From assembly GCA_026989375.1 (NCBI GenBank), contig JALSJJ010000074.1:4850-68849 (forward strand): a DNA stretch of 64,000 bases, in the 5' to 3' direction. This DNA comes from Rhodothermus sp. (lineage in GTDB: Bacteria > Bacteroidota > Rhodothermia > Rhodothermales > Rhodothermaceae). The translations under genes were made by a program, and so were the position numbers. Under the pieces are notes generated by a model that saw only the letters and a list, made by a program, of their open reading frames with translations, searched no databases and was not told the DNA's origin. This document shows positions 10,534-12,132 of the stretch, in pieces (position 1 is the stretch's first letter; each line of letters begins with the position of its first letter).

Positions 10534-11124
10534 TCAGAAGTCGCCTTCGCGGGCATAGGGATAGCTCCATAGCACCACCTGCAGCGTAACGGCCTTGAAC
10601 CAGGCCTGGTGCATTTTTTCTACTACGTCCGGTGGATGCCCCTTACGGGCCAGAAAGTCACGCATGGTTAGGGTGATGGGCACAATGAAGGCGATCAGAT
10701 AACGCAGCGGAATGTGCAGAGGCGCTGCAACCCCGTCGGTCTGGTTCTTCTTGGTCCGGTGATGCCGGAGACCGATTTCCATCTGGTAGTTGAGCCAGTC
10801 CTGATTGTACGGACGCCGGCAGGTATCCAGAATCCACTGACCAAAGCGCGCCCGCACCCGTTCCAGGTACTCCGGGATGGGACGACCGTCAGGGCCCTGA
10901 AAGTAATAGATCAGATGCGGATGGCTGCCCACAAAGCCGTACCATAGATCCAGTACGGCCTCAATCTGATCTTCCAGCACGTCGCCGGCCATGCGCAGGT
11001 AGCGCACGTCTTCGTCAGTAAAGAGTACGGTCTGTTTGAGTCGGGCAAAGTCTTCCATGGAGAGCGGCGAACGAGCTACGTCAGGCTGTCCGTAGGTATA
11101 GCCGGGAATCGTCTGCGTGGCCAT
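10534..11124 (-). CDS. Protoglobin (single-domain archaeal-type globin)
   Basis: IPGYTYG N-terminal loop, WYGFVGSHPHL, EIGLRHHRTKKNQTD (proximal His) and QAWFKA...LWSYPY..GDF match the Methanosarcina protoglobin as I recall it. Confidence 0.92.
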   Translation of the reverse strand: MATQTIPGYTYGQPDVARSPLSMEDFARLKQTVLFTDEDVRYLRMAGDVLEDQIEAVLDLWYGFVGSHPHLIYYFQGPDGRPIPEYLERVRARFGQWILDTCRRPYNQDWLNYQMEIGLRHHRTKKNQTDGVAAPLHIPLRYLIAFIVPITLTMRDFLARKGHPPDVVEKMHQAWFKAVTLQVVLWSYPYAREGDF

Positions 11125-11210
11125 GGCTGCTTCGTGGTTGGTGCAACTTGCTATCGGAAAGCTTAACACTTTATCTTCAATAAGTGAAATATTTTGAATT
11201 TCTAATCATG

Positions 11211-11225
11211 ATAACATTTTCTTAT
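11211..11225. promoter_or_regulatory. LysR-type operator (T-N11-A, ATAA-N7-TTAT dyad)
   Basis: ATAACATTTTCTTAT lies in the AT-rich divergent gap and overlaps the LysR start codon; a second ATAAG half-site is at 11180-11184. Confidence 0.6.
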
Positions 11226-12132
11226 GGAGCTACGGGCATTGCGATACCTGTTGGCGGTGGCCGAGGCAGGGAACTTCACGCGGGCAGCCGAGCGCTGTTT
11301 TGTTTCGCAGCCGGCCCTTTCGCAGCAGATTCGCAAGCTGGAGGAGGAGCTGGGCGAGGTGCTTGTGGATCGGTCGCTGACGCCGGTCCGGCTGACGGCA
11401 GCCGGTGAGGTAGTGGTGGCCCATGCGCGGCGCGTGCTGGCCGAGCTGGCGGCCATGCGTGTAGCGCTGGACGAGCTGCAGGGGTTGCAGCGCGGGCACC
11501 TGGTCATTGGGGCCGTCCAGACGGTGCGCACGTACTTGATGCCCTATGCCGTGACCACCTTTGCCCGCACCTATCCCGAGGTGCGGCTGCAGGTGCTGGA
11601 GCTGCCGGCCGACGACGTGGAAGCCGGGGTGCTGGAAGGGTGCTTTCACCTGGGATTAAGCTTTGTGCCGACCGTGCAGGAGGGACTGGATGCAGATCCG
11701 TTGTTTACAGAGGAGCTGGTAGTGATCGTACCGCCCGACCATCCGCTGGCCGGCCAGCACGTAGCGTCGCTGGAGGCTCTGGCGCGGACGCCGCTGGCCC
11801 TGTTGCCGGCCACGTATTGCACCCGACGGTTGTGGGATCGGTGGGCGCAAGACGTGGGCCTGCAACCCGAGATCAGCCTGGAGATGAATACCATCGAAGG
11901 GCTGCTGTATGCGGTCCGGACGCTGGGCATGGCGACGGTGTTACCCGCCCTGACGCTGCATCTTGAGATCGCGCATAATTTGCGGGCCGTGCGGCTTCCG
12001 AAGCCGCTGTGCCGTACGGTGGGCGTCATTTATCGCAGGGGGGCATATCGTTGCCTGGCCGCGCGGGCTTTTGAAGACGTGTTGCGCGCCTGGAGCAGAA
12101 AGGTGCGGAACGGACAGGCGACTGCTGCGTGA
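11224..12132 (+). CDS. LysR-family regulator, CynR-like
   Basis: HTH NFTRAAERCFVSQPALSQQIRKLEEELG; effector domain segments (PLFTEELVVIV, YCTRR, EMNTIE) resemble E. coli CynR by eye. Confidence 0.9.
   Translation: MELRALRYLLAVAEAGNFTRAAERCFVSQPALSQQIRKLEEELGEVLVDRSLTPVRLTAAGEVVVAHARRVLAELAAMRVALDELQGLQRGHLVIGAVQTVRTYLMPYAVTTFARTYPEVRLQVLELPADDVEAGVLEGCFHLGLSFVPTVQEGLDADPLFTEELVVIVPPDHPLAGQHVASLEALARTPLALLPATYCTRRLWDRWAQDVGLQPEISLEMNTIEGLLYAVRTLGMATVLPALTLHLEIAHNLRAVRLPKPLCRTVGVIYRRGAYRCLAARAFEDVLRAWSRKVRNGQATAA

Follow-up and report, generated by a model that had tools for sequence, protein, structure and literature searches.

The window analysed here is a 64,000-nucleotide stretch of a Rhodothermus sp. 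genome (assembly GCA_026989375.1, contig JALSJJ010000074.1, positions 4,850 to 68,849). It contains a protoglobin gene and a gene for a LysR-type transcriptional regulator, which lie head-to-head across a 99-bp AT-rich gap. The two genes very probably constitute a regulator-target module, because they are strictly syntenic, are present or absent together, and share a conserved operator. A preliminary description of the locus had read the globin as the target of the regulator and had likened the regulator to Escherichia coli CynR, and both of these points stand; its proposals of an archaeal-type globin and of a cyanate or cyanide response module do not. The features of the locus, in window coordinates, are as follows.

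10534-11124, minus strand: protoglobin gene, 196 amino acids; single-domain S-family globin (Pfam, alignment to 2veb, motif positions)
11125-11223, no strand: divergent control region, 99 bp, 33% G+C
11148-11177, plus strand: weak promoter-like element directed towards lysR, TTGCTA-18 nt-TATCTT (by eye, putative)
11180-11191, plus strand: operator half-site 1, ATAAGTGAAATA, consisting of ATAAG and a conserved A-rich tail
11202-11206, plus strand: operator half-site 2, CTAAT (CTTAT in most relatives)
11211-11225, plus strand: operator dyad ATAACATTTTCTTAT, ATAAC-N5-CTTAT, half-sites 3 and 4, of the T-N11-A form
11224-12132, plus strand: LysR-type regulator gene, 302 amino acids; CynR-like paralogue specific to protoglobin loci
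11818-11820, plus strand: Cys199 codon (motif Y-C-T-R-R-L-W), aligned with OxyR Cys199
12052-12054, plus strand: codon of Cys277, a residue that 23 of 24 protoglobin-linked regulators share and that CynRs lack

The two proteins and their shared control region

The globin open reading frame as called extends from 10534 to 11169 (minus strand) with a GTG start; homologues all begin at the ATG at 11124 (MATQTIPGYTYG), and from there the protein is 196 residues long. This protein scores 133.2 bits against Pfam Protoglobin (PF11563; cut-off 25), and its residues 1–196 pair with residues 1–195 of the Methanosarcina acetivorans protoglobin, MaPgb (PDB 2veb; E 3e-86). As the preliminary description had noted, it is full length and carries the N-terminal loop IPGYTYG (6–12), Trp61-Tyr62 at B9/B10, and GLRHH (118–122); the last two line up with identical motifs in 2veb. 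We take the first histidine of GLRHH to correspond to the proximal histidine of MaPgb, whose numbering is presumably H120 and W60-Y61. By its domain, its length, the N-terminal extension and loop which in this family bury the haem, and its motifs, the protein classifies as a protoglobin, and it is predicted to bind haem and diatomic ligands. An archaeal origin is rejected: relatives at 62–74% identity are scattered across many bacterial phyla, and the Methanosarcina protoglobins nest inside bacterial sequences on the globin tree. Globin Cys102 (codon 10832-10834, minus strand) lies within DTCRR, opposite Ser101 in the 2veb alignment, where we believe the native residue to be a Cys that was replaced by Ser for crystallisation. 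The same genome contains two more Protoglobin-domain matches, both at contig ends (C109:17-289 and C108:4148-4309), which may be one globin-coupled sensor gene broken by assembly.

The divergent gene encodes a protein with the LysR-type architecture, matching HTH_1 at 82 bits and LysR_substrate at 158 bits, and its AlphaFold model has a confidence (pLDDT) of 92.7. CynR is its best NCBIfam family (264.4 bits, with the next family at 163), its closest PDB entry is 2hxr, and over 282 residues it shares 39% identity with E. coli CynR.

The gap between the two genes has a G+C content well below that of the window (33% versus 60%). Four half-sites begin at 11180, 11202, 11211 and 11221, the last overlapping the lysR ATG; the dyad and the ATAAG at 11180 lie where the preliminary description had placed them. 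The dyad, which itself reaches into the start codon, begins 31 bp past half-site 1. This spacing equals three helical turns, the same as commonly separates the recognition site of a LysR-type regulator from its activation site. The comparison of control regions drew on the gaps of 14 representative lineages. A dyad ATAAG-N5-CTTAT with at most one mismatch is present in 12 of them, against a mean of 0.11 in shuffled sequences; an ATAAG-like half-site stands exactly 31 bp upstream of the dyad, again in 12 of 14, and a CTTAT half-site falls between the two. Conservation across phyla indicates that the dyad and the ATAAGTGAAATA box are more than chance occurrences.

Within the window, the dyad with one mismatch is matched three times, where 0.32 matches are expected. 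The only exact copy of ATAAGTGAAATA, both in the window and in the genome, is that at 11180-11191, and its four one-mismatch matches in the genome are at the level of a control pattern. The regulator thus looks local, and a whole-genome search with this box gave no sign of further regulon targets. The promoter-like element directed towards lysR stops 2 nt short of half-site 1 and scores below the scan threshold; at the equivalent position Chloroflexus has TTGACA-N17-TATGAT, and a related genus (g36) has TTGACA-N17-TATTTT. This positional conservation makes it a candidate lysR promoter, strong in Chloroflexus and weak here. The E. coli cynR-cynT gap (L103:3192-3299), inspected by eye, contains ATAAGG and ATTGGATTTACTTAT about 32 bp apart beside the cynR start, a similar layout which suggests that DNA recognition may be common to the wider CynR-like group.

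Distribution of the gene pair

The pairing is not unique to the window's genome, and it holds in both directions of search. A forward survey of 80 protoglobin loci from named genomes reveals a head-to-head orthologue of the regulator (45–53% identity) at eight, belonging to Chloroflexus, Caldilinea, Anaerolineae and an acidobacterium. When the regulator itself is followed, 401 Chloroflexota genomes yield 12 orthologues at 45% identity or above, every one of which adjoins a protoglobin; three weaker LysR matches in these genomes (37–40%) do not. Another 401 genomes, from the window's own phylum, hold six orthologues (four in Rhodothermus, two in another genus), and all six stand beside a protoglobin, as do all three metagenomic orthologues (44–52% identity). 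Regulator and globin distances are correlated (r 0.56 among 14 representatives, Mantel p ~4e-4), and both trees attach Rhodothermus to a Bacteroidetes locus, L104. Judged from these sequences, the regulator belongs to a distinct CynR-like clade whose members are encoded, with few exceptions, beside protoglobins. The two genes are passed on and lost together, in many thermophilic bacteria.

Rhodothermus itself is polymorphic for the pair. Both genes are present in four genomes (G000, G001, G003 and G004) and both are absent from three (G002, G005 and G006), at a site common to all seven, between the gene for a Mo-hydroxylase large subunit and menA. The common flanks are an MBL hydrolase gene and two Mo-hydroxylase subunit genes on one side, and menA-menC-menE with a response regulator gene on the other. 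At the empty sites, only ~87 bp separate the hydroxylase gene from menA, and a stretch of ~35 nt is retained that matches the lysR 3' end exactly. On a midpoint-rooted tree of the flanks, built with no outgroup, the empty genomes nest among the occupied ones. The retained nucleotides and the flank tree favor one deletion of ~1.6 kb in the G002/G005/G006 lineage as the simplest history, although a gain is an alternative given the midpoint root. A search of 34 further genomes from the order recovered neither gene. A recent horizontal transfer of the pair was considered and rejected, as the G+C and third-position G+C (GC3) of both genes match the flanks and the pair tracks the flank phylogeny. 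Rhodothermus constitutes a natural experiment, in which close genomes with and without a 1.6-kb module can be compared at one site.

At 12129-12132 (GTGA), the stop codon of lysR and a possible menA start, a GTG, overlap; GTGAAGGAGG and ~35 nt before it are kept in the Rhodothermus genomes that have no lysR. Transcription of lysR may run on into menACE.

The signal and competing explanations

Two conserved cysteines set the regulators of this clade apart. All 24 protoglobin-linked regulators have Cys199, as do 90 of the 92 homologues that are at least 44% identical, within the clade motif [FY]-C-T-R-R-L; CynRs carry Val, Ala or Ile at this position. In the alignment this cysteine shares its column with E. 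coli OxyR Cys199, and the AlphaFold model places it in the first turn of the helix formed by residues 199–210. A further cysteine, Cys207, lies one column ahead of OxyR Cys208 and is found in 11 of the 24 linked regulators.

The genes beside other protoglobins are often of a redox type. Among the 96 loci compared in all, a count that includes loci fetched via the LysR itself, the adjoining regulator is of the LysR family in 24, of the MarR family in 47 and of the HxlR family in 10, and cyanobacterial loci have a TetR regulator. The MarR-family gene, which adjoins the protoglobin on the same strand in 47 of the first 80 loci, encodes ~206 residues (e.g., L029:4301-4924, plus strand); its C-terminal part matches no family, contains four invariant cysteines (a CxxC followed by two single Cys), and is a candidate redox sensor of the Fe-S or zinc kind. 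At 20 loci the MarR gene and the protoglobin gene are separated by a glutaredoxin-like gene encoding ~95 residues (e.g., L056:4405-4698, plus strand), whose product is monothiol: one Cys is conserved (TDCDDT). A divergently oriented regulator of the HxlR type, in which an N-terminal Cys is conserved, is present at 11 of the 80 loci. Gammaproteobacterial loci have an AhpD-like gene (CMD family) just upstream on the same strand, and cyanobacterial loci have the TetR gene in that place (examples of these upstream genes are L026:4442-4930 and L040:4190-4753, both plus strand). Regulator type is strongly clustered on the globin tree (15 changes, compared to 43.5 with shuffled labels). In the loci compared, bacterial protoglobins usually adjoin a local regulator of their own, apparently of a redox type. 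Relatives of the window's regulator at 42–45% identity face an Fe/Mn superoxide dismutase gene in a gammaproteobacterium (L107:3166-3819, minus strand) and, in Pelagicoccus, a thioredoxin-like gene (L109:3617-3856, minus strand). The 242-residue and 250-residue gene products facing related regulators at L106 and L109 have no Pfam match.

The match of Cys199 to the OxyR column and the redox context of the genes together suggest a thiol-based stress switch. We propose that the LysR-type regulator would bind the four ATAAG/CTTAT half-sites in the 99-bp gap and control the divergent protoglobin gene; because the dyad overlaps the lysR start codon, it probably also represses itself. The signal would be oxidation or nitrosylation of Cys199 by peroxide, nitric oxide (NO), reactive nitrogen species or other thiol-reactive stress, rather than the binding of cyanate, and the protoglobin would be made on demand and handle such species at its haem. 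The sequences show the identities of the genes, their strict synteny, their joint presence or absence, the conserved operator and the clade-specific cysteines; that the regulator binds the DNA, whether it activates or represses, what it senses and what the globin does chemically are inferred. On balance we lean slightly towards this account as a whole, that of a thiol-switch regulator driving a stress-inducible protoglobin module; that the signal acts through a thiol switch is, taken by itself, an evenly poised proposition. A thiol switch fits the activities of MaPgb, for which the title of one study (PMC4020757) names nitrite reductase and peroxynitrite isomerase, reportedly in vitro. In Naegleria a protoglobin is induced together with antioxidant enzymes (PMC7578549), which agrees with such a switch as well.

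Several observations weigh against a thiol switch or complicate it. First, the window's regulator has Trp207 and Ala208, so that the resolving cysteine of the OxyR type, Cys208, is missing, and Cys277 is replaced by Ser in R. profundi (L095). Second, the genome encodes a separate OxyR-like regulator (L085, contig C150:3205-4101), which scores 215 bits on the OxyR model, below the cut-off, and is the only other match among the four LysR-type candidates scored. Third, the regulators linked to superoxide dismutase have Ala in place of Cys199, which argues that the oxidative-stress context of the wider clade is independent of that residue. Fourth, a conserved cysteine in the effector cleft could bind a ligand, a metal or haem. 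Finally, a sigma-70 scan of the gap found no consensus promoter, and none for the globin either, a result that bears on activation versus repression.

An alternative explanation is that the regulator senses as CynR does, with cyanate, azide or a similar anion (nitrite, thiocyanate or cyanide) bound non-covalently in the effector cleft to induce the protoglobin. CynR is the nearest characterised relative by score, identity and structure, the half-sites of the E. coli cynR-cynT gap, ATAAG/CTTAT, have by eye a comparable layout, and in vitro the haem of protoglobins takes up cyanide and azide as ligands. The CynR-like scaffold thus leaves room for a sensor of cyanate-like anions. However, the regulator scores under the cut-off of the NCBIfam CynR equivalog (NF008416; 264.4 versus 277 bits). 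The cyanase-facing CynRs (E. coli, L110 and L111) form, with named relatives, one clade with 100% SH-aLRT branch support, and in this quick tree of 69 sequences the clade leaves out every protoglobin-linked regulator, so that the phylogeny places the regulator outside the CynR clade. Sixteen alignment positions, including 98–101, 199, 202–203, 245 and 267, set the protoglobin-linked clade apart from CynRs. The preliminary description had remarked that no cynT or cynS adjoins the regulator, and indeed its divergent neighbor is the protoglobin and not a cyanase or carbonic anhydrase gene; moreover, no cyanase (PF02560) was found in the window's genome (96% complete) or in five other pair-bearing genomes, among them a Chloroflexus and a Caldilinea, by a search that recovered cynS in E. 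coli K-12 as positive control. Its score, its position outside the cyanase-linked clade and the failure to find a cyanase in the six genomes go against membership of CynR, and the reading of the locus as a cyanate or cyanide module is not supported; a sensor of such anions within the present pair is unlikely. The Chloroflexus protoglobin-linked regulator (L001:1357-2202, minus strand) reaches 302 bits on the CynR model, above 277, and since the NCBI model passes such orthologues they carry 'CynR' as public name. This label, on the regulators of Chloroflexus, Caldilinea and R. profundi, is probably a mis-transfer.

The conserved cysteines might instead bind haem or a metal, so that protoglobin synthesis would be matched to haem or iron supply, or gas would be sensed via the bound haem. 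The target is itself a haem protein, two conserved cysteines are specific to the clade, and HbrL of Rhodobacter capsulatus provides a precedent as a haem-binding LysR-type regulator. However, the motif [FY]-C-T-R-R is devoid of the Cys-Pro of a haem-regulatory motif, the conserved cysteines number just two per subunit, and the other regulator families adjoining protoglobins point to thiol redox sensing. We consider such a haem or metal sensor improbable.

Slightly more improbable is the suggestion that the protoglobin, besides being the regulated product, is a free haem domain that senses gas, one half of a globin-coupled sensor split in two, and acts in trans on the adjoining transcription factor. 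If true, it would explain why stand-alone protoglobins are nearly always beside a regulator. Regulator families have been exchanged freely, however, which speaks against signalling by the globin in trans.

That the regulator chiefly serves the menACE operon, with the globin a bystander, is very hard to credit: lysR is co-directional with menA-menC-menE and the overlap of its stop with the possible menA start makes read-through plausible, but three Rhodothermus genomes hold menACE in place with no regulator, the genes downstream in other phyla are unrelated and often on the opposite strand, and the constant partner is the protoglobin.

Significance and comparison with known systems

What protoglobins do physiologically has been an open question ever since they were discovered, and the abstract of PMC3680402 describes the biological role of MaPgb as 'still unknown'. 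In the literature library that was searched, we found no paper that connects a protoglobin with a local regulator, be it LysR, MarR or another. Protoglobins and LysR-type regulators are both known families, and the divergent LysR-target pair is a classical arrangement. What appears to be new is a dedicated, widespread, CynR-like clade bearing Cys199 for protoglobins, a general rule that bacterial protoglobins have redox-type regulators of their own, and the presence/absence polymorphism in Rhodothermus. The conserved cysteines of these regulators and the thiol-redox genes often found alongside turn the matter into a concrete question, namely by which oxidant or nitrogen species the regulators are switched and how the globin acts on that species.

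Four known systems invite comparison. With MaPgb, the window's globin has in common the full-length alignment (E 3e-86), the N-terminal loop, the B9/B10 Trp-Tyr and the proximal histidine motif; it differs in having a bacterial host and a dedicated adjoining regulator, whereas the Methanosarcina locus (L052) has a methyltransferase gene upstream of the protoglobin and no regulator there. With E. coli CynR, the regulator has in common the LysR-type architecture, a divergent target gene, and ATAAG/CTTAT-type half-sites beside the regulator start, but the target is a protoglobin rather than carbonic anhydrase and cyanase, and residue 199 is Cys rather than Ala or Val.

E. coli OxyR likewise has a Cys at position 199 of the alignment, where a helix starts and x-R comes next, and controls a divergent gene, as is predicted here. 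Both have a four-half-site operator, that of OxyR being of the ATAG/CTAT type. Unlike OxyR, the window's regulator is well under the cut-off of the NCBIfam OxyR model (134.3 bits versus 329), lacks Cys208, and would have one local target instead of a regulon.

Stress-inducible bacterial globins with dedicated regulators are represented by Hmp, under NsrR or NorR, and by Campylobacter Cgb, under NssR. The arrangement predicted here is of the same kind, in that a local or stress-specific transcription factor has a haem globin produced when it is needed, but it would be built from different parts: the globin is an S-type protoglobin with no reductase domain, and the regulator belongs to a different family.

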